Shown here one piece after another: positions 4,740 to 20,000 of a stretch of DNA of 20,000 nucleotides. Each line of letters starts with the position of its first letter. The stretch's first letter is position 1. The translations under genes and the position numbers were made by a program. The stretch spans positions 54,651 to 74,650 of the IMG/VR virus record IMGVR_UViG_3300021962_000076; one strand, written 5' to 3'. The stretch comes from an uncultured virus (IMG/VR IMGVR_UViG_3300021962_000076). Taxonomy: Duplodnaviria > Heunggongvirae > Uroviricota > Caudoviricetes. A model generated the notes under the pieces. It made no database searches and was not told the DNA's origin. It saw nothing but the letters and a program-made list of their open reading frames with translations.

Positions 4740-6041
4740 ATGAAAACAAAACTTTTAAATGTTTTATCAAGGATCATTAAAGAAGAAGTTGAAGATGTAA
4801 GAATTTCAGCTGAAGATTATATGAAACTCTTAAAAAGAGTAAATTATGCCGCTCAAGCAATTCCAAAACTACCACAGTTTAAAGGAAAACACCTTGTTGT
4901 TGTTGGTGATGTTACTCTTAGAGACAATGATAAAATAATAGATTTAGGACCAATTACAATTGATGGTGATTTAGATGTCTCACGAACAAATATAAAATCA
5001 TTAGACCACACAAAAGTAACAGGGTATAGCCGCTATTGGCAAACACCATATGAAAAAGTTGTGTATAGTAGAAGACAAGCTGCCAAAATGGAGGAGCAAA
5101 AAGAAAAAAGAAGAGATGGTGAGTGGGATATGAATAGTAATTTAGATGAAGAAGGAATAAGAGCAAATTTAGTATTCCAATTTGCAGTTGATGAAGGTCA
5201 TATTGAAGAATTAGATGATGAAGAAAAAGAAAGAGTCCAAGAGATAAAAAAAGAAATAAAAAGACTAGAAGAAGATGAAGATGAAATCCAGGAAACTCAA
5301 GATGAAATTGACGAATTAGAAGATGAATTAAGCGACCTTTTAAGTGGTAAATTTGATGTATATTATTTATATCCTAGTGGTCGTTTTTATGCTATGGATG
5401 AATTTGAACTACTAGAAGATGGATCTAGATATGCAATTGGAACAGAAGATGAAGCCGAAGAGTCAATGAGAGATTATTACCAAGAATGGGTTGATTACCC
5501 TGAAAATTATTTAGATAACAATTTCCTATCATATTATATCGATGAAGAAGCCGTTGTAGATGATGCAAGATATGCTATTGAAGACTGGGTTCGAGAATCA
5601 CCAGAAGATTATGGTGTTGAAAGAATAGAATTATCATCATCCCAAGAAGAAGAAATAGAAAGATTAGAAAATCAAATTAGTGAATTAGAAGAAAAGTTAG
5701 AAGAGCTAGAAGACGAAGATGAAATCCAGGAAACTCAAGATGAAATTGACCAACTTGAAAGTGAAATACAAGATATTAAAGATTTTCCAGAAGGTGATTA
5801 TAGTGAAGATGATATAGAACAAGCAATAGAAGACTACCTAAACGACAACGTAAGATATGATCCAGCTGATTGGTTAAGAGAGATGGGAAGGGATATTACT
5901 GATTATATTGATAAAGATGATTTACTAGACGCATTAGTTCGTGATGGTGATTACGGAGACACTCTAAATTCATATGATGGAACATATGAAAGTGTTAGAT
6001 ATGGTAATGATTATTACATTATTATGAGAATAGACGCATAA
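4740..6041 (+). CDS. extremely acidic coiled-coil protein with internal duplication
   Basis: 433 aa, D/E-dominated; short LRR-like stretch (VGDVTL...IDGDLDVSRTNIKSL); two EDEDEIQETQDEID helices. Confidence 0.85.
   Translation: MKTKLLNVLSRIIKEEVEDVRISAEDYMKLLKRVNYAAQAIPKLPQFKGKHLVVVGDVTLRDNDKIIDLGPITIDGDLDVSRTNIKSLDHTKVTGYSRYWQTPYEKVVYSRRQAAKMEEQKEKRRDGEWDMNSNLDEEGIRANLVFQFAVDEGHIEELDDEEKERVQEIKKEIKRLEEDEDEIQETQDEIDELEDELSDLLSGKFDVYYLYPSGRFYAMDEFELLEDGSRYAIGTEDEAEESMRDYYQEWVDYPENYLDNNFLSYYIDEEAVVDDARYAIEDWVRESPEDYGVERIELSSSQEEEIERLENQISELEEKLEELEDEDEIQETQDEIDQLESEIQDIKDFPEGDYSEDDIEQAIEDYLNDNVRYDPADWLREMGRDITDYIDKDDLLDALVRDGDYGDTLNSYDGTYESVRYGNDYYIIMRIDA
5277..5750 (+). repeat. exact 36-bp direct repeat (5277-5312 and 5715-5750)
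   Basis: GAAGATGAAATCCAGGAAACTCAAGATGAAATTGAC occurs twice, in frame, 438 bp apart. Confidence 0.9.
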
Positions 6042-6083: not shown

Positions 6084-6857
6084 ATGAGAAAAAAGAAAAA
6101 GATAGAATTTTTAATGGACACAGATTGGATGTTCGAAAAACCCATAGACCGGGAACACAAAGAATATAAACTACTATCTTATTTTCAAAAAATGGGCGAA
6201 AGACTCGACAATATGGAGTTATACCCAGGATTCATAGAACTTTCATTACACTTAGCAAATGCACAAACATTACTTAAGGATAAAAAAATGTTATATACTG
6301 ATAAGAGGTTTAAAACACCTGATGATGAATTATTAGTAAAAGACCTTAAGTTAAAAGAACTACCACATATGTCAAATGAAGAATATTTTGAGTTTGTCAA
6401 AATATTAGGATATTCATTACCAAGACTTATGGAATATTTTAGTATTGCTAAATCAGTATGGGAATTAGTATTTGATAGTGTACATTTAATTGTAAAAAAG
6501 AATAAAAAAAATATAACATCAATAGATGGTTTTTTTTATTTTAAAGACAAAAAGGAAAATAAAATTTATTTATGGGAATATACAGAAAAACCAGCAACAA
6601 GAGGTGCAAATGAAAATAAAATAATAACAAAACTTATTTATTGTGATGAAATAAATAAATCAACAGTCCCAAAAATAATAAGTGAGAATGTAACTAGAGA
6701 GGATAAATCAAAACTACCAGTAATTGAGATGGTAAGTAGAGGTGAATTCCCAATTGAAGAAACATTACTACCACTTTTTAAAAGAAAGTTATTATCTTAT
6801 CTATATCAAAAAAGATTAATTAAGGAAAATGAAGAAGTCGAAAATAAAGAAAGCTAA
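6084..6857 (+). CDS. hypothetical protein
   Basis: 257 aa ORF with normal composition; no recognised motif. Confidence 0.8.
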   Translation: MRKKKKIEFLMDTDWMFEKPIDREHKEYKLLSYFQKMGERLDNMELYPGFIELSLHLANAQTLLKDKKMLYTDKRFKTPDDELLVKDLKLKELPHMSNEEYFEFVKILGYSLPRLMEYFSIAKSVWELVFDSVHLIVKKNKKNITSIDGFFYFKDKKENKIYLWEYTEKPATRGANENKIITKLIYCDEINKSTVPKIISENVTREDKSKLPVIEMVSRGEFPIEETLLPLFKRKLLSYLYQKRLIKENEEVENKES

Positions 6858-7068
6858 AGAACAAGTCGACCACCCAAAACATTATGGTGGTGAAGACAAT
6901 ACATATGAAGCAATAAAAGTAATTGACGCCTGGGATTTAAACTTTTCTTTGGGTAATACAGTAAAGTATATATCAAGAGCTGGTAAAAAAGATAAAGAAA
7001 AAGAAATCGAAGATTTAGAAAAAGCTTTATGGTATTTAGAGCACCATATTAATAAATTAAAAGATTAA
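6829..7068 (+). CDS. DUF3310 family phage protein
   Basis: VDHPKHY...EAIKVI...FSLGNTVKYISRAGKK...EDLEKALWYL signature. Confidence 0.88.
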   Translation: MKKSKIKKAKEQVDHPKHYGGEDNTYEAIKVIDAWDLNFSLGNTVKYISRAGKKDKEKEIEDLEKALWYLEHHINKLKD

Positions 7069-7415
7069 TCTGTTATAAAAACAGAGTCACCTTCTTTTAT
7101 GTCATATTTTTCACAATCACCACCATTTATTTCTAAAATCAAATCAGCAACACCACTATATCTAGGACAGTTATCTTCTCTACATGGAGGGCAATTACTA
7201 TGAATTTTATTAATTTTTAAATCTTTTATGAAAATAATATCTAAAGACGTTATGCAGTTTTTCATCCAAAAAGAATGGGAACTAATTTCATTAAAAACGA
7301 ATAACATACCATTAAAATCATCGTTAAATTTTTTATACATCATACCATTTTCAATATCCTGTCTAGTAATAACTGGTATGACTTTAAGTAGATTATCATT
7401 TATAATTAACTCCAT
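7065..7415 (-). CDS. DUF192 family protein
   Basis: GMM...GMLFVF...SFWMKN...LDIIFI...LEINGG...IKEGD signature. Confidence 0.88.
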   Translation of the reverse strand: MELIINDNLLKVIPVITRQDIENGMMYKKFNDDFNGMLFVFNEISSHSFWMKNCITSLDIIFIKDLKINKIHSNCPPCREDNCPRYSGVADLILEINGGDCEKYDIKEGDSVFITD

Positions 7416-7980: not shown

Positions 7981-8008
7981 GTTTATTTTAAAAATTTACT
8001 TATATTTG
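7978..8008 (+). promoter_or_regulatory. Bacteroidota sigma-A-type promoter (-33 TTTG / -7 TAnnTTTG)
   Basis: TTTG (7978-7981), 19-nt spacer, TATATTTG (8001-8008); ATG follows at 8013. Confidence 0.65.
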
Positions 8009-8012
8009 TAAT

Positions 8013-8287: not shown

Positions 8288-8728
8288 ATGAAAAATTTAT
8301 ATATAGCATTTTTAATCTTTTTTTCATTAATATCTTGTGAAAAAGAGCCAATTGGACCACCAAATCCACCAGAACCAATAATAAGTGACACATTAGAAAT
8401 TGACTCTACCTATAATTTAACTGGACAAATTTGGGTTATATCACAATATAGGGTTGGCCAATTTGGTGAAATTTTTCCATTAAACGATACTATAACGTTC
8501 CTAGATTTAAATACGTATACATATAATGGTTTTGAATCGTCATATTCGTTTTATCCAACGGCATCAGCTTATAATTTAACATTAAATTATACACCATTTG
8601 GTAATCTTAGCGGTACCATATATCAGGGCAACTTAAATCTTGGTGTTATGAATGGTTTAAAGTTTACTGACATTACAATTGGATCTAGTAATCAAACTGA
8701 GTATTATTTTTGGATGACAAGACAGTAA
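8288..8728 (+). CDS. putative lipoprotein
   Basis: Signal peptide II MKNLYIAFLIFFSLIS-C, then a Pro-rich tether and a beta-rich domain. Confidence 0.75.
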   Translation: MKNLYIAFLIFFSLISCEKEPIGPPNPPEPIISDTLEIDSTYNLTGQIWVISQYRVGQFGEIFPLNDTITFLDLNTYTYNGFESSYSFYPTASAYNLTLNYTPFGNLSGTIYQGNLNLGVMNGLKFTDITIGSSNQTEYYFWMTRQ

Positions 8729-8793: not shown

Positions 8794-8829
8794 AAAAAAT
8801 AAAGGAGGGTTATACCTCCTTTATTTTTT
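8794..8829. terminator. terminator-like hairpin overlapping the 3' end of the sigma-fusion gene
   Basis: AAAAAATAAAGGAGG-GTTATA-CCTCCTTTATTTTTT, 15-bp perfect stem with A/T tracts on both sides. Confidence 0.8.
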
Positions 8830-9823
8830 CTAACTCAATCTTAAGATTTTTTTTAGCCTTATGTAACTGTGATTTAGATGTGCCAATGTTAATACCTAAT
8901 TTATCAGCAATTTCATCGTGCTGTAAATCATCAAAGTAATATAAATTAAAAATCTCTTGTTGTTTTTTTGGTAATTCTAAAATAGCATTTTTTATATCAC
9001 TATCATCATATAGTCCCATATATCTATCATCATATTCATCTTCTTCACTATCATATCTATCAAAATCAAAATCTGAAACCTTATTACCTTTTTGTTTTCT
9101 AATTGTATCTATTGTGTTGTTTCTAACAATCATAGCAAGCCACGCACCAATTTTATCTGGGTTATCACTAAATTTTTCTAAATTATTAAAAGCTTTTATA
9201 AAACCATCTTGACAAAAATCCTTAGCCTTTTCCCTATCACCATCAGCGTACTTTAAACAAACATTATTATATATTGGATTAAACCAATTACGATATGCTA
9301 AATCAAAATCTATATTTTCATTTAGTTTATTATATAATTTAGCCTCATTTATTAGGTCAAAATCATAATTACTAAAAGATTCCGTAAGCTTTAATTCGGC
9401 ATCATTTTTTAAACCCTCTATAAATTTACGCATACCATTAGCAAAATTTTTAACTAAGGGTATTTTTGACAATAACATCTTATCCAAAAAATCCAAAGTT
9501 TTACCAGACCACTTTAGTATTGTTTTTAGTAACCAACCAAGTATTGGAACTTCTGAAACTGCCGAAACAACTTTACTACCCAAGACAAATGGTTTTGTTG
9601 CCCAATCAATCCCTGGTATCGCAGAAACTAGAGTTAATAATGCAAATGTATTTTTACCCTGACGCCAGTAAGATATTGCATTACCAATATCAACAATACC
9701 AGTAGGATCGAAAATACCAACAATATCTGCTATAGTATTTAGAATACCCTCATTTAATGAAAATTCTAAATTATTATTATTAACTATTAAATTATATTGA
9801 CTTTCTGTAATTATAATTTTCAT
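8810..9823 (-). CDS. ECF-type sigma-70 factor fused to an N-terminal leader and a PT-TG-like hydrophobic domain
   Basis: C-terminal half has region 2 (AKDFCQDGFIKAF...GAWLAMIVRNNTIDTIRK) and region 4 (LPKKQQEIFNLYYFDDLQHDEIADKLGINIGTSKSQLHKAK). The N-terminal ~165 aa is unrelated to sigma. Confidence 0.88.
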   Translation of the reverse strand: MKIIITESQYNLIVNNNNLEFSLNEGILNTIADIVGIFDPTGIVDIGNAISYWRQGKNTFALLTLVSAIPGIDWATKPFVLGSKVVSAVSEVPILGWLLKTILKWSGKTLDFLDKMLLSKIPLVKNFANGMRKFIEGLKNDAELKLTESFSNYDFDLINEAKLYNKLNENIDFDLAYRNWFNPIYNNVCLKYADGDREKAKDFCQDGFIKAFNNLEKFSDNPDKIGAWLAMIVRNNTIDTIRKQKGNKVSDFDFDRYDSEEDEYDDRYMGLYDDSDIKNAILELPKKQQEIFNLYYFDDLQHDEIADKLGINIGTSKSQLHKAKKNLKIELEKIKEV

Positions 9824-9881
9824 ATTTTTATAAATATCTTAAAATATTTAATATTTATTTTTATAAAAAAAAATTAATAAA

Positions 9882-10104: not shown

Positions 10105-10764
10105 ATGGAAACAAAGAAACACAAATCATTAGAATTAGAAACCAAAAGAATTAGTTTTCTTTTAGTTGGTTTTTTATTTGCTGGCGCAATGACATTAGCC
10201 TCATTTTCGTATACCAATGTTTTAACAAACTATAAACCTATAATTAATAGTGGGAAGAGCACTACAATTAATTATATGGTTGAGTCAAAGGTTGATCCAC
10301 CAAAAATCTTGGAGTTACCAAAGATACAATACACACCACCTATTGATGAAAAAATAAAAGAAAAAGAAAATGAAAAAAAAATAATAACACCAGTTGTCAC
10401 TGTTGGGCCACCAAATATTGTTGATACTACTGAAATAATAATATCAGAAGAAATTATTGATTTTCCAGATAAAGACGCTATGTTCCCGGGTGGTGTCATT
10501 GAGATGATTAAATGGGTTGTACAAAATATAGATTATCCAGAGGCAGCAATCGAATTCAATGAACAAGGTAGAGTATACCTATCATTTATTGTCGAACCAG
10601 ATGGGTCAATTACTAATATAACAATAGAACGAGGCGTTAGCTTTGATCTAGACAAAGAAGCAAAAAGAGTTGTAAAAACAATGCCAAATTGGATTCCAGG
10701 TGAAAAAGGAGGAAAAAAGGTTAGGACTAGATGCTCACTCCCAATTAATTTTGAAATAAATTAA
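10105..10764 (+). CDS. tonB: energy transducer TonB (Bacteroidota type)
   Basis: N-terminal TM helix, Pro-rich linker, then AMFPGG...IDYPEAA...QGRVYLSFIVEPDGSI...LDKEAKRVV...MPNWIPG...LPINF (TonB_C). Confidence 0.9.
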   Translation: METKKHKSLELETKRISFLLVGFLFAGAMTLASFSYTNVLTNYKPIINSGKSTTINYMVESKVDPPKILELPKIQYTPPIDEKIKEKENEKKIITPVVTVGPPNIVDTTEIIISEEIIDFPDKDAMFPGGVIEMIKWVVQNIDYPEAAIEFNEQGRVYLSFIVEPDGSITNITIERGVSFDLDKEAKRVVKTMPNWIPGEKGGKKVRTRCSLPINFEIN

Positions 10765-12232: not shown

Positions 12233-12808
12233 ATGGCAAAGCTATATTTTAGGTATTCAACTATGGGTGCTGGTAAATCATTGGATTTATTAAAGACAGC
12301 TTACAATTATGAAGAACGTGATAAATATATTTTATTACTAACATCTAGTTTAGATGATAGATATGGTAAAAATAAAATAACATCTAGATTAGGAATCGAT
12401 AGAGATGCAATTCCTTTTACTAAAGAAACTAATATATTTAACCTAGTTAGTAATTCTTCTTTTGGACTTAATTGTATTTTAATTGATGAAGGTCAGTTTT
12501 TAACAAAAGAACAGGTCTGGCAACTAACAGATATTGTTGATGAATTAGATTGTGATGTCATCGTTTATGGATTGAGATCAGACTTTAAAGGGGATCCATT
12601 CGAAGGTTCAATTTACTTAATGACTTTAGCAGATGAAATTGAGGAACTAAAGATGGTTTGTAAGTATGGTGAGAAAACATCAATGAATATGCGTTTAAAT
12701 AATAACATACCGGTATTTGATGGTGAAAAAGTAATGATTGGTGGTAATGATTCTTACTTACCAGTTTGTAGAGAATACTTTAAAAAAATGAAAAATAAAT
12801 ATGAGTGA
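12233..12808 (+). CDS. tdk: thymidine kinase
   Basis: LYFRYSTMGAGKS P-loop, ILIDEGQFL, VYGLRSDF, IGGNDSY.PVCR. Confidence 0.95.
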   Translation: MAKLYFRYSTMGAGKSLDLLKTAYNYEERDKYILLLTSSLDDRYGKNKITSRLGIDRDAIPFTKETNIFNLVSNSSFGLNCILIDEGQFLTKEQVWQLTDIVDELDCDVIVYGLRSDFKGDPFEGSIYLMTLADEIEELKMVCKYGEKTSMNMRLNNNIPVFDGEKVMIGGNDSYLPVCREYFKKMKNKYE

Positions 12809-13649: not shown

Positions 13650-14270
13650 ATGAAATATCTTATTAATGAATCAAATTTAATTAATCTAGAAAGAAAGATT
13701 AACAAATCAATTCAGAACATTGGGTTATACGAAACATTAAGTAGATATAAACTACCATTCAAAGCAGCTAATATAATCCTAAGCCCACAAAACGAAGAAT
13801 ATTTTACTTGTAGAGAATTATCTGAAATATTTTTTTATTATCTAGGACAAACAAAAGATATACCTAAAGAAATTGTCTACAAGAATTTTAGAATTGTAAG
13901 TACACCAGACCCCGACGCTGGTGACGGTGATGATTTCTATATGGATACAGAAGTTTATTTTGATGGTGTTACAAAAAAATATTTATCAGGATATGGACAA
14001 CCATTTTATTGTGGATTTGGCTCTAAACGTGATCAAAATAGAACAACCGTAATTTCATTAGAATATAACTATTATATTGAAGGTGAATATGGATCTAGAG
14101 ATTACAGTGAACATGAAATAACTAGTAGATTTAGTCATCTTTGGCTTGAGGTTGATATTAAATTAAAAACTCTTGACCAGGCACTAGAGTGGTATTTAAA
14201 TGAATATCCAAAAATTATTATTGATTTTACTAAAGATGTTTTAGATGAGATAGATGAATATCTTTATTAA
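13650..14270 (+). CDS. hypothetical protein with MKYLINES leader
   Basis: 206 aa, acidic/aromatic; TATTTAT 5 nt upstream; N-terminus resembles the MKIIITES leader of the sigma fusion. Confidence 0.8.
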   Translation: MKYLINESNLINLERKINKSIQNIGLYETLSRYKLPFKAANIILSPQNEEYFTCRELSEIFFYYLGQTKDIPKEIVYKNFRIVSTPDPDAGDGDDFYMDTEVYFDGVTKKYLSGYGQPFYCGFGSKRDQNRTTVISLEYNYYIEGEYGSRDYSEHEITSRFSHLWLEVDIKLKTLDQALEWYLNEYPKIIIDFTKDVLDEIDEYLY

Positions 14271-15817: not shown

Positions 15818-17086
15818 ATGATTTTAGAAAAACTTAAAAACATCCCAAAAAATCCAGGTTGTTATCTATTCAAAGACGATAGGGAACAAATAATTTATGT
15901 TGGAATGTCTAAGTTTCTACCAAAAAGAGTATCATCCTATTTCCAAAAAAATCAAAAAGGTAAAACAAAATCACTTGTTGAAAAAATTTCAGATGTAGAA
16001 TTTAAGATTACATCATCAGAACAAGAAGCCATAATTCTGGAAGAAGAACTAATCAAACTTTACAAACCTAAATTTAATATTAAAGGTAAAGATGACAAAA
16101 CTAGAAGCTGGTCAATCTGTTTTACTAGTGAGGACTTCCCAAAACTTGAGATTGTTAGAAATAAACAAGATGATAGAATTTCACTTGACTTTACATCAGG
16201 TAATCTATGTCGTGAAATATATAATCTAATTCACGATGTCTTCCCACTTCGTAGTTGTTCTTATGATTTGAATGAAGAAAATATCAAAAAAGAAAAATTT
16301 AAAACCTGTTTAGAATTTCATCTAGGTAGATGTAATGCACCATGTGTTAATAACATACAAAAGGTATTATATAATAGTATTATTATTGATGTTAAAAAAG
16401 TTTTATCACTTGACATTTCTACTTTACAAAAAAAACTAAAAAAGACTATGAAGTACTACTCAACTAATCTAGAGTTTGAAAAAGCCCAGGATTTATTATT
16501 GAAACTTACAAATTTAGAAAGTATAGATAATAAATTAAATGTGATTAAACTACAAAAGTATAACAAGAAAGCTTTTGACATTAAAAATATTTTAGGTCTT
16601 AAAAATCAACCAAATGTTATTGAAGCTTTTGATAATTCACACAATCAAGGATCATCTAATGTTGCTGCGTCAGTTAGATATGAAAATGATAACCCGGTTA
16701 AATCGGAGTATCGTAATTATATAATTAGAAGTTTTGATGGAATAGATGATTATTCATCATTTGATGAAGTACTACAAAGAAGATTTAAAAGAATGGTAAA
16801 TGAAAAACAAAAATTACCAGATCTTGTAATCATTGATGGTGGTAAAGGACAATTAAATGTCGCTAAAAGAGTATTTGAAGAATTAAATCTAATAGATACA
16901 GTAGACCTCATTTCAATATCGAAAGACTCAAAACACAAATCTTCAACAATTCATTTGACAAATGGTAATGAGGTTAAAATAAATACAAATAATAACTTTG
17001 TTTTATTATCTAAAATCCAGGAAGAAGTCCATAGATTTGTAATTAAATTTCATAGAAAAAAAGAAATTAAAAGATTACTTTTTTAA
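15818..17086 (+). CDS. uvrC: UvrC-like excinuclease, shortened
   Basis: GIY-YIG domain (PGCYLFKD..IIYVG..PKFNI), Cys cluster (CSY..CLEFHLGRCNAPC), UVR motif (LEFEKA), RNase H-like domain (IEAFDNSH, DDY, PDLVIIDGGKGQL, QEEVHRF). No C-terminal HhH. Confidence 0.9.
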   Translation: MILEKLKNIPKNPGCYLFKDDREQIIYVGMSKFLPKRVSSYFQKNQKGKTKSLVEKISDVEFKITSSEQEAIILEEELIKLYKPKFNIKGKDDKTRSWSICFTSEDFPKLEIVRNKQDDRISLDFTSGNLCREIYNLIHDVFPLRSCSYDLNEENIKKEKFKTCLEFHLGRCNAPCVNNIQKVLYNSIIIDVKKVLSLDISTLQKKLKKTMKYYSTNLEFEKAQDLLLKLTNLESIDNKLNVIKLQKYNKKAFDIKNILGLKNQPNVIEAFDNSHNQGSSNVAASVRYENDNPVKSEYRNYIIRSFDGIDDYSSFDEVLQRRFKRMVNEKQKLPDLVIIDGGKGQLNVAKRVFEELNLIDTVDLISISKDSKHKSSTIHLTNGNEVKINTNNNFVLLSKIQEEVHRFVIKFHRKKEIKRLLF

Positions 17087-17586: not shown

Positions 17587-18711
17587 ATGAAAATTCGTTT
17601 AGAATATGTTTGGCTTGATGGGTATGAACCAGAACCAAATTTAAGAAGTAAAGTTAAAATTGTTGACGCAAGCTTACTATATGGGACAACAAAAGAATTA
17701 ATTGATTTAATTCCAGAGTGGAACTTTGATGGATCATCAACAAGACAAGCTAATACTGGAAATTCTGATAGAATTTTAAAACCAGTTAGATTATATAAAA
17801 TAGACGTATCAGAAACCATCTATGTACTATGCGAAGTGTTAAATTCAGATGGTACGCCCCACGTATCAAATACTAGATCAAAACTAAAAGATGAAGATAA
17901 CGAGCTATGGTTTGGATTTGAACAAGAATATTTTATTCGTGAAGGTAAAAATAAAGCAATTTTAGGGCATAATGGTATTATTGAAGGTCAAGGTAAATAT
18001 TATTGTGGAGTTGGATCAAATGTGGTTGGAAGAGATTTTGTTGAAAAGCACACAAATATGTGTTTAAATTATGGAATTGATATTACGGGGACAAACGCAG
18101 AAGTAGCGCTTGGACAATGGGAGTATCAAGTATTTGCAGAAGGAAAACTAAAGGCTGGGGATGATTTATGGATGTCAAGATATTTTTTACATAAACTATC
18201 CGAAGAATATGGATATGAAATTGACTTACACCCAAAACCAATTCAACAGGGAGAATGGAATGGGTCTGGACTACACACAAACTTCTCAAATGATAAAATG
18301 AGAAATGAAGGTGGGGAAGAATATTTTGAATCACTATTTGCAAGTTTATATGGAAGACACTTAGATCATATTAAAGAATATGGATCATCAAATGAATTAA
18401 GACTTACCGGAAACTATGAAACACAATCAATTGATAAATTTAGTTGGGGTATTTCAGATAGAGGCGCATCAATTAGAGTTCCAAAAGGTACTGCAGAAAA
18501 TTGGAAAGGATATGTCGAAGATAGAAGACCAGGGTCGAATGCTGATCCATATAAAATAATTTATCAAATTGATAAGTCTATTAAAAACGCTGAAGCAATT
18601 GCCGACATTAAATATAAAATGAATTATGAACTTGATATAGATAATCTTAAAAATGATTTTAAAACACTTTCACCAGAGGAATTGTTAAGTGAATACCGTA
18701 AAGATGATTAA
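17587..18711 (+). CDS. glnII: glutamine synthetase type II
   Basis: LEYVWLDG, LRSK, WNFDGSST, WFGFEQEY, QGKYYCGVG, NAEVALGQWEYQ, WNGSGLHTNFS, RLTGNYET, DRGASIRVP, EDRRPGSNADPY. Confidence 0.93.
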   Translation: MKIRLEYVWLDGYEPEPNLRSKVKIVDASLLYGTTKELIDLIPEWNFDGSSTRQANTGNSDRILKPVRLYKIDVSETIYVLCEVLNSDGTPHVSNTRSKLKDEDNELWFGFEQEYFIREGKNKAILGHNGIIEGQGKYYCGVGSNVVGRDFVEKHTNMCLNYGIDITGTNAEVALGQWEYQVFAEGKLKAGDDLWMSRYFLHKLSEEYGYEIDLHPKPIQQGEWNGSGLHTNFSNDKMRNEGGEEYFESLFASLYGRHLDHIKEYGSSNELRLTGNYETQSIDKFSWGISDRGASIRVPKGTAENWKGYVEDRRPGSNADPYKIIYQIDKSIKNAEAIADIKYKMNYELDIDNLKNDFKTLSPEELLSEYRKDD

Positions 18712-18945: not shown

Positions 18946-20000
18946 ATGAAGAATTTACTATTTTTACTAACAACAATCTTTACGATTTTTACAACAACAA
19001 CATTTAGCCAGTGTACAAACAACGTTTATGGTTTGTATGCATCACTAACCCCAACATGCACAGGAGCGTGGCAAACAGTCACTACTTGTGGATGGAGAGG
19101 AGAATACTCTAACATCAATGTAACTGCAGGAAATTCGTATTCATTTGCAAGCTCTGTTGGTTCAGATATTGTAACCATCACAACTACGGCAAATGCTGTA
19201 TTAGCTTGGGGAACTGGAACTGCTACTTGGACAGCAACATTCACAGGAACAATTAGATTTTATACACACGGACCTGGATGTACAACAGGAACAGGATGTA
19301 GAACAAGGAGGGTAATGTGTTCTGGCCCGCCACCACCCCCGTCATGTACAGATAATCCATTAGTTATTAATATGTACGATTCTTGGGGAGATGGTTGGAA
19401 TGGTGCAACATATACTATCATTAATGATGCAAATGGTTCCACGGTGGGATCAGGAACATTATCCACAGGTTCATCAGGTACCTCATCTATATATTGTGTG
19501 TTAGATGGTTGTTATACTATCATAGTAACTGATGGTACTTACCCAACCGAAGTATCTTGGACAGCAACAATTAATGGAGTTGTTTATGCGAGTGGAGGAG
19601 CAGTATCGTCAACACAATTACCTATTAACTCCTTTTGTGCACCGCCAGTAGCTGAAATGAAAATCCCATCATCTGGTAATAACTCTTACAACGTATGTGA
19701 AGGTATGTTATATGATAATGGGGGATCGATTGGCAACTACTCTGTAAATGCTAATGGATACACAACTCTATATCCTGGTACTATAGGATCAATGGTGTCA
19801 GTAACATTCACCTCATTTAATCTTGAGACTAATTGGGACTACGTATATGTATATGATGGTAATAGCACTGCATCCCCACTACTAGGTGTATTTACAGGAA
19901 CTGCCTTACCGGAAAACTTTATATCTACCGCACCTGATGGTTCTTTGACGCTAAGACTAACATCAGATGGTAGTATACAATACGCTGGATTCTCAGCTGA
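18946..20000 (+). CDS. large secreted Cys/Thr/Gly-rich protein with CUB-like domain, 3'-truncated (not in ORF track)
   Basis: Frame open from ATG 18946 to the window end. Signal peptide MKNLLFLLTTIFTIFTTTTFSQ, a DSWGDGWNG module, and CUB-like YDNGG..NYS...TFTSFNLETNWDYVYVYDG...LTSDGS...GF. Confidence 0.85.
   Translation, partial: MKNLLFLLTTIFTIFTTTTFSQCTNNVYGLYASLTPTCTGAWQTVTTCGWRGEYSNINVTAGNSYSFASSVGSDIVTITTTANAVLAWGTGTATWTATFTGTIRFYTHGPGCTTGTGCRTRRVMCSGPPPPPSCTDNPLVINMYDSWGDGWNGATYTIINDANGSTVGSGTLSTGSSGTSSIYCVLDGCYTIIVTDGTYPTEVSWTATINGVVYASGGAVSSTQLPINSFCAPPVAEMKIPSSGNNSYNVCEGMLYDNGGSIGNYSVNANGYTTLYPGTIGSMVSVTFTSFNLETNWDYVYVYDGNSTASPLLGVFTGTALPENFISTAPDGSLTLRLTSDGSIQYAGFSA

Follow-up and report, generated by a model that had tools for sequence, protein, structure and literature searches.

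Whether a lytic-type phage could carry a sigma factor of its own into the host cell as virion cargo, released from a longer protein by a prohead protease, is the question raised by a single gene in the 20,000-nucleotide stretch of DNA analysed here (the window), which originates from an uncultured virus of the Caudoviricetes (IMG/VR record IMGVR_UViG_3300021962_000076). The gene (8810..9823, minus strand, as for all its parts) is translated without an internal stop into 337 amino acids beginning with a leader, and its reading as leader, hairpin module, linker and ECF sigma factor is based on the translation, Pfam matches, homologues and bridging contigs. The leader (residues 1-25; 9749..9823), in which E7 and E25 mark candidate prohead-protease sites, is capsid-targeting-like in appearance. 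Next come a PT-TG-like helical hairpin (residues 26-82, DxxGxxDPTG to SAIPG; 9578..9748), recognised from the ESM Atlas and an RHS relative, and amphipathic helices (residues 83-141; 9401..9577) which complete the module according to hhalign, HMM comparison and a structure model. A linker (residues 142-169; 9317..9400), of low pLDDT in the structure model and carrying candidate cleavage sites behind E148, E160 and E169, leads into the ECF (group 4) sigma factor (residues 170-337; 8813..9316), identified by Pfam, NCBIfam and Foldseek, in which Pfam places region 2 at about 9089-9262 and region 4 at about 8843-8995. The division into leader, module and intact ECF sigma factor given by the first-pass annotation is borne out by the 337-residue ORF and by the Pfam matches to regions 2 and 4. 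In the structure model of the 337-residue protein, residues 83-141 contain helices at a pLDDT of about 50-60, and the monomer model has no defined packing between domains (pTM 0.29). A perfect 15-bp inverted repeat (8794..8829), a terminator-like candidate that overlaps the stop codon between convergent genes, is not among the predictions of a consensus terminator scan.

An assembly chimera as the origin of the fusion was ruled out by contigs from three studies (runs X1, X3, X4 and X5, X1 being possibly the source of the window sequence), which cross the module-sigma junction with zero differing letters. Nor is the fusion a one-off of otherwise separate genes, since in addition to this bridging it is found in 17 protein clusters, with identities as low as about 46%. 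Both the fusion and hairpin proteins without a sigma factor were thus recovered in related phages, where the first-pass annotation had proposed looking for the fusion and for the module on other cargoes.

The sigma domain is intact, with Sigma70_r2 spanning residues 188-245 (E 4e-12) and Sigma70_r4_2 residues 277-327 (E 3.5e-16), and it scores 95 bits against TIGR02937 (cut-off 42.9), the best NCBIfam subfamily being the Bacteroidota family TIGR02985 at a score below its cut-off. Regions 2 and 4.2 are both present and regions 1.1 and 3 are absent, the composition by which ECF (group 4) factors are defined, and the best Foldseek matches of the model are ECF sigma factors including SigW, SigH and RpoE. 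The protein therefore shares with bacterial ECF factors the possession of intact regions 2 and 4.2 only and the SigW/SigH/RpoE fold, its nearest bacterial counterparts being of Bacteroidota type (P0211-P0213, 39-42% identity). In contrast to these, it is carried by a lytic-type phage, and a phage leader or cassette stands in place of the N-terminal helix found in the bacterial factors. Bacterial ECF genes are, moreover, usually co-transcribed with an anti-sigma gene (a typical rather than a defining property), whereas here no co-directional neighbour is present as an anti-sigma partner, both flanking genes (encoding a lipoprotein-like protein and a TonB C-terminal domain protein) being located on the opposite strand.

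The window is the terminal part of a 74.6-kb virus fragment with an estimated completeness of 25%, and head genes are absent from this contig. Of the 84 proteins predicted on the fragment, 54 are matched collinearly (median identity 55%) in the complete 296-kb record G008, which encodes homologues of terminase, portal, S77 prohead protease, scaffold and gp23-type capsid protein. In the second half of a further relative (G004), an S77 protease is found in a head-gene block with terminase, portal, protease and capsid genes and a reverse-strand bS21 gene (L083:12583-12771, minus strand); this order, together with the reverse-strand bS21, is the one published for Bacteroidetes-infecting bS21 phages in the available portions of PMC9723584. 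The window contig is without the bS21 head block, yet it is collinear with G008, which has the corresponding terminase, portal, protease and capsid genes. G004 (L072-L085) itself looks chimeric, containing two head modules as if two phages had been joined.

The bS21-encoding freshwater phages of Chen et al. 2022 have genomes of about 300 kb, predicted Bacteroidetes hosts and a core RpoD-like sigma factor, as reported in parts of PMC9723584; in places 1-92 of the 94 sigma rows of its table S6, the true sigma factors belong to the RpoD-like family except one. Unlike in the present family, leaders, an ECF cargo and the hairpin module are not described in those portions. The host of the large uncultured aquatic phage studied here is probably a member of the Bacteroidota. 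Searches of isolate phages gave only distant matches to crAss-type sigma factors with the sigma domain and no match with the stand-alone hairpin family (see below), and the capsid proteins of the nearest isolates have 41-43% identity to the family capsid. Before many genes of these phages a TAnnTTTG box is present, with TTG further upstream at 33 of 49 sites, corresponding to the flavobacterial sigma-A box given in a passage of PMC9723704. These boxes often end 4-5 nt 5' of the ATG, which suggests leaderless mRNAs.

The leader is not particular to the sigma gene, being common to many unrelated proteins of the same phage: ORFs with this start number 13 of 267 in G003, 19 of 195 in G004 (second half) and 23 of 349 in G008, and by a strict pattern 1 of 84 in the window's own fragment. 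Sigma genes were collected from 57 loci, giving 55 ORFs and 30 distinct sequences, or 28 following removal of two cut by contig ends; the leader type starts 25 of these 28 distinct complete ORFs, and the motif RTATTTAT is located upstream of 25 of the 28. In the window this candidate late-promoter element (9830..9837, minus strand) ends 6 nt 5' of the ATG and would generate a near-leaderless transcript. The motif lies upstream of 15 of 23 leader genes against 61 of 326 other genes in G008 (p 4e-6, with unrefined starts), while TATTTAT precedes 9 of 13 against 46 of 254 in G003 and 12 of 19 against 54 of 176 in the second half of G004 (in both cases with starts refined toward the motif). On annotated genes the difference was not significant (structural genes 7 of 10, others 7 of 19; p 0.13), and across the whole window no enrichment was found (19 occurrences against 12.2 expected, with 13 of 200 shuffles reaching 19). 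Among 327 operon heads, the TATTTAT motif was found in 124, the host-type box in 51 and both in 3. These distributions make late expression driven by RTATTTAT likely. Two other window genes (4740-6041, encoding a very acidic protein that contains a repeated coiled segment, and 13650-14270) combine the upstream motif with leader-like starts (IKEE, INES) and are candidates for head cargo.

A motif resembling that of sigma-70 (TTGAC/TATAAT) precedes some replication genes, although with 10 occurrences against a shuffle mean of 2.45 and maximum of 10 it is borderline, the pattern having been picked after inspection. In G003, TTGAC-N17-TATAAT sites before the genes for SSB, DNA polymerase and a glycosyltransferase (gene starts L097:16149, L099:7380 and L100:15954) could be recognised by the RpoD-like sigma factor of the phage.

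If the protein is processed in the head, cleavage sites would be expected at its module borders, and the first-pass annotation had pointed to five such x-E sites there. All five are present (ITE7, LNE25, LTE148, INE160 and LNE169), with two additional [IL]xE sites at residues 283 and 336, and a count of five across the two linker regions exceeds that in shuffled sequences (p 0.00025, for regions chosen after the sequence had been inspected). An alignment of 17 sequences upholds most of them: E7, E25 and E148 are each conserved in 17 of 17 and E169 in 13 of 17, but E160, which lies in an insert specific to the window's subclade, is for that reason kept in only 4 of 17. The spacing is also constrained, given that I/L/V-x-E occurs 18-19 residues N-terminal to the C[LM][KR]Y motif, conserved where region 2 begins, in 24 of the 28 sigma ORFs, and [ILVMF]-x-E occurs 13-14 residues N-terminal to DPTG in 181 of 202 hairpin proteins (208 proteins, the hairpin being unlocated in 6), whatever precedes it, over prefix lengths from about 20 to 450 residues. 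This hairpin-proximal site is missing in the bacterial RHS relative P0197, and near the sigma-border position an L-x-E is found in one of three bacterial outgroup ECF factors (LIE12 in P0211). Such high counts overstate the support, because related sequences are not independent.

A protease of a fitting type is encoded in the family, as both G004 and G008 encode a gp21-like S77 protease and the family capsid carries an INE site: its prodomain ends with INE in 71 of 71 distinct sequences (76 of 80 loci), before the body aligning with mature T4 gp23, a conservation which is partly expected because the capsid N-terminus is highly conserved overall. Scaffold proteins contain 542 [IL]xE motifs against 449 expected (only 1.2-fold, a mild enrichment), whereas nine control enzymes are not enriched (50 against 59).

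Phage T4 offers a close comparison, since its Alt protein is ejected and has host RNA polymerase as a target. According to passages in PMC5694885 and PMC9958956, T4 gp21 trims short leaders off internal proteins, and Alt is cleaved at ITE-6 and LTE-619 (PMC5694885, in part). The present leaders resemble the capsid targeting sequences of T4 IPI-III and Alt, processed by gp21 (PF03420, S77), in being short, N-terminal and terminated by a site ending in E, and a gp21-like protease and a gp23-like capsid protein exist in this phage family as in T4. They differ in that the putative cargo is a sigma factor, in that several cassettes are chained into predicted polyproteins with internal sites, and in that leader genes number at least 13-23 per large contig. 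The system is best described as a putative T4-type cargo system with an unusual cargo, a sigma factor.

Taking these observations together, the best reading, to which we assign a probability of roughly 0.55, is that the gene encodes a polyprotein made late, packaged in the head and cleaved to give two cargoes for injection; a sigma factor of the phage's own would thus probably be loaded into the head and delivered to the host. The gene would be an accessory head cargo of a T4-like myophage of the bS21 group, of roughly 300 kb and with a predicted Bacteroidota host. Following late transcription from RTATTTAT, the N-terminal leader would dock the protein on the prohead core, by analogy with the T4 capsid targeting sequence, and the gp21-like S77 protease would then cut after E7, E25, E148 and E169, generating the hairpin module (residues 26-148) and a sigma factor (residues 170-337) that starts at region 2. 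Both would be ejected alongside the DNA, whereupon the sigma factor could bind host core RNA polymerase at once, either to fire a small ECF regulon of phage or host genes or to compete with host sigma factors, and the hairpin module would probably enter the inner membrane as a separate effector. The fusion would, on this account, represent a two-cargo polyprotein with a single shared promoter and leader, and not a regulator with its tether. The packaged and protease-processed polyprotein of the first-pass annotation gains comparative support from the border sites, the shared leader, the S77 protease, the INE capsid site and the candidate late-promoter motif, while its core unit, its polymerase switch and its PT-TG assignment needed to be corrected, as set out below.

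The most serious competitor, which we nevertheless consider unlikely, accepts late synthesis and places the action of the protein in the producing cell, through tuning of late transcription of host or phage or competition for core enzyme, the leader being a mobile expression cassette (a promoter with a start that is translated well) or a protease-timed tag, and packaging, should it occur, being incidental. Short pieces of other contigs match positions 9788-9844, so that promoter motif and leader are shared as one stretch of DNA and appear to travel as a single cassette, and leader genes are many, small and fast-changing ORFs. A search for target promoters found none, the best pair count for an ECF-type bipartite promoter being 8 where shuffles reach 6-9, which is also in keeping with such a role. 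What this explanation leaves unaccounted for is the presence of E sites at fixed distances from internal module borders, and the retention of E148 in 17 of 17 sequences.

If the sigma factor is packaged, it may be asked what it would achieve after injection. The ECF gene is absent from the complete relative G008, and is for this reason an accessory gene. Since host-type promoters are in addition present on many genes, an obligatory RNA polymerase switch is improbable and a role as essential early switch unlikely; its role is probably to activate a small regulon or to compete for the core enzyme. Of the first-pass claim that the protein redirects host RNA polymerase, the intact ECF factor stands, whereas redirection as an obligatory step is unlikely. 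A partial parallel exists in the virion RNA polymerases of phiKZ-like phages (described in sections of PMC13282480 and PMC7824862), in which transcription machinery is likewise placed in the head and injected, whereas the present cargo would be a single specificity subunit for the host core enzyme, accessory rather than essential, and putative. In the sections available from these two jumbo-phage reviews, phage sigma factors figure as expressed recruiters of host polymerase. An injected sigma factor would, if real, constitute a far smaller route to instant takeover than a whole virion RNA polymerase.

The core unit of the architecture is leader plus ECF factor, with the hairpin as an optional cassette that has been repeatedly gained or lost. 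Among the 28 distinct complete sigma ORFs the hairpin is present in 6 and absent from 22, in most of which the leader runs directly into the sigma domain, and this module-free form is the commonest; one sigma ORF (L058) has neither leader nor upstream motif. In a sigma tree of 47 rows, module-bearing and module-free forms are interleaved, requiring at least 7 gains or losses, and a single clade of module-bearing sigma factors is rejected (p-AU 1.4e-6; 21 against 26 rows). An obligatory three-part architecture is ruled out by the 22 hairpin-free ORFs and by these changes on the tree. Several module-free forms still carry the last part of the linker, which is what in-frame deletions between leader-like repeats would be expected to leave behind; deletion-like forms are P0209, P0210, L021 and L023. 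Further arrangements include leader and hairpin module at the sigma locus with the sigma domain missing (L008:3396-3881), leader-sigma and hairpin proteins encoded by separate genes (G009), an ECF domain behind a DHH-like domain of about 470 aa (L062:4883-6805, 640 aa in all) and an ECF domain behind a two-leader cassette (L037:9665-10588, 307 aa). Leader and hairpin without sigma are also found in proteins P0006 and P0106.

The hairpin module was compared with the PT-TG domain (PF14449), to which the first-pass annotation had likened it. In the ESM Atlas, when only named clusters are considered, the top three matches are PT-TG (0.91, 0.90 and 0.87, with 132 of 256 features shared at 0.91), and in the unfiltered ranking PT-TG is at rank 10 (0.86). 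The hairpin is moreover 47% identical over 64 aa to the segment directly following the RHS core of the bacterial protein P0197. On the other hand, the PF14449 profile gave no match in the module, 10 relatives, 5 genomes or 30 distant relatives, and the 25 families displayed for 103 hairpin-family members do not include PF14449; no Pfam or PHROG identity was obtained for the module. The resemblance, suggested by the Atlas neighbours and the RHS-position relative without a score on the family profile, is a lead, and the module is to be called PT-TG-like, a resemblance and not Pfam membership. Common to both is a glycine-rich helical hairpin; PT-TG of polymorphic toxins precedes a toxin, whereas the phage hairpin precedes a sigma factor or an uncharacterised helical domain, has no trafficking domain or immunity gene and has an RHS context only in P0197.

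The module corresponds to a shortened N-terminal half of a stand-alone phage protein family of 330-400 aa, present at 433 viral stretches: an hhalign comparison of A1 with A2 gave a probability of 99.95 (query 1-156), and the module covers positions 48-124 and 153-205 of the 384 in the family HMM. The upstream promoter motif is present at 48 of 59 distinct ORFs of this family. A model of the stand-alone protein (pLDDT 68.7, pTM 0.40) gave generic helical bundles in a fold search (best VIA, Z 7.4) and no match in BFVD at E 0.001 or better, and PDB profile matches of the family were rejected as compositional only. A search for longer hairpin-bearing proteins was positive for 0 of 50 candidates, a weak form of evidence. 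The hairpin is also seen inside proteins of 490-675 aa (P0139, P0165, P0189, P0190, P0191, P0204 and P0185), behind a weakly ParB-like or peptidoglycan-binding domain. Three proteins with hairpin N-termini on bacterial-looking C-termini (P0014, P0016 and P0059) are probably assembly chimeras and were left out of the cargo examples. The stand-alone hairpin gene (L106-L185) has a DNA methyltransferase/DUF3310 pair on one side and a DHH-like gene on the other; since DUF3310 (6829-7068) directly adjoins DUF192 (7065-7415) in the window, the stand-alone hairpin block is missing there.

The toxin-like resemblance bears on a further explanation, in which the protein is packaged and trimmed and the hairpin remains with the sigma factor, or acts with it as a handle for translocation across the inner membrane. 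Pre-toxin domains of the PT-TG type have been proposed to translocate toxins, the relative in P0197 stands right after an RHS core, and the fusion has persisted under selection to about 46% identity, the deletion-like forms listed above suggesting that the fused form is old in its subclade. Sister lineages without the module nevertheless keep an intact sigma factor, two or three cut sites separate module from sigma domain, and a recent survey, in the part available (PMC13483458), leaves PT-TG function open and argues that a translocation role is probably not correct. We regard this explanation as improbable.

Still less credence is given to a membrane-tethered ECF factor freed by regulated host proteolysis during infection, the alternative offered by the first-pass annotation, which is weak at best. 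The module is indeed N-terminal to the sigma domain and contains amphipathic helices, but the hydrophobic character claimed for it amounts to moderate hydrophobicity, with no clear transmembrane helix (best 19-residue Kyte-Doolittle mean 1.59). A tether would hardly be missing from 22 of 28 sigma ORFs or occur without a sigma factor, and the sites fit the pattern of a capsid protease and not that of a sensor domain.

Across 15 pairs of six fused genes, dN/dS ranged from 0.02 to 0.42 in the module and from 0.11 to 0.45 in the sigma domain (distant pairs being near saturation), and about 0.06 for the hairpin compared with L010; module and sigma domain are both under purifying selection. A neutral recombination product of leader cassettes with one non-functional part, or an assembly artefact, is the least probable explanation, for although leader repeats supply microhomology (as at the L021 versus L015 junction) and the state of the module changed at least 7 times on the sigma tree, it is contradicted by these ratios, by the junction-crossing contigs of three studies and by the 17 clusters carrying the fusion.

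As regards the proposed two-cargo polyprotein, no listing returned by a literature search mentions a sigma factor packaged in virions, or this leader. The leader together with the fixed cut sites would provide a sequence rule for listing the injected proteome of an abundant group of uncultured phages, and gives exact peptides to seek in virion or environmental proteomics. The hairpin would connect phage ejection cargo with a pre-toxin domain of bacterial toxins (treated in part of PMC13483458). The fullest version of the proposal, namely that a virion sigma factor reprograms host RNA polymerase before any phage expression, that a hairpin borrowed from the delivery systems of polymorphic toxins inserts in the inner membrane and helps the cargo across, and that the leader defines a set of exchangeable cassettes encoding dozens of injected effectors, is a tentative possibility, and as a whole it is doubtful.

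With respect to the surroundings of the sigma gene, a host-type box precedes the operon with the lipoprotein-like gene (8288-8728) and also the gene for the TonB C-terminal domain protein (positions for these features 8000-8012, 10105-10764 and 8288-8728). Other genes in the window encode thymidine kinase, UvrC and glutamine synthetase (12233-12808, 15818-17086 and 17587-18711), and a gene for a CUB-domain protein (18946-20000) is truncated by the window end.
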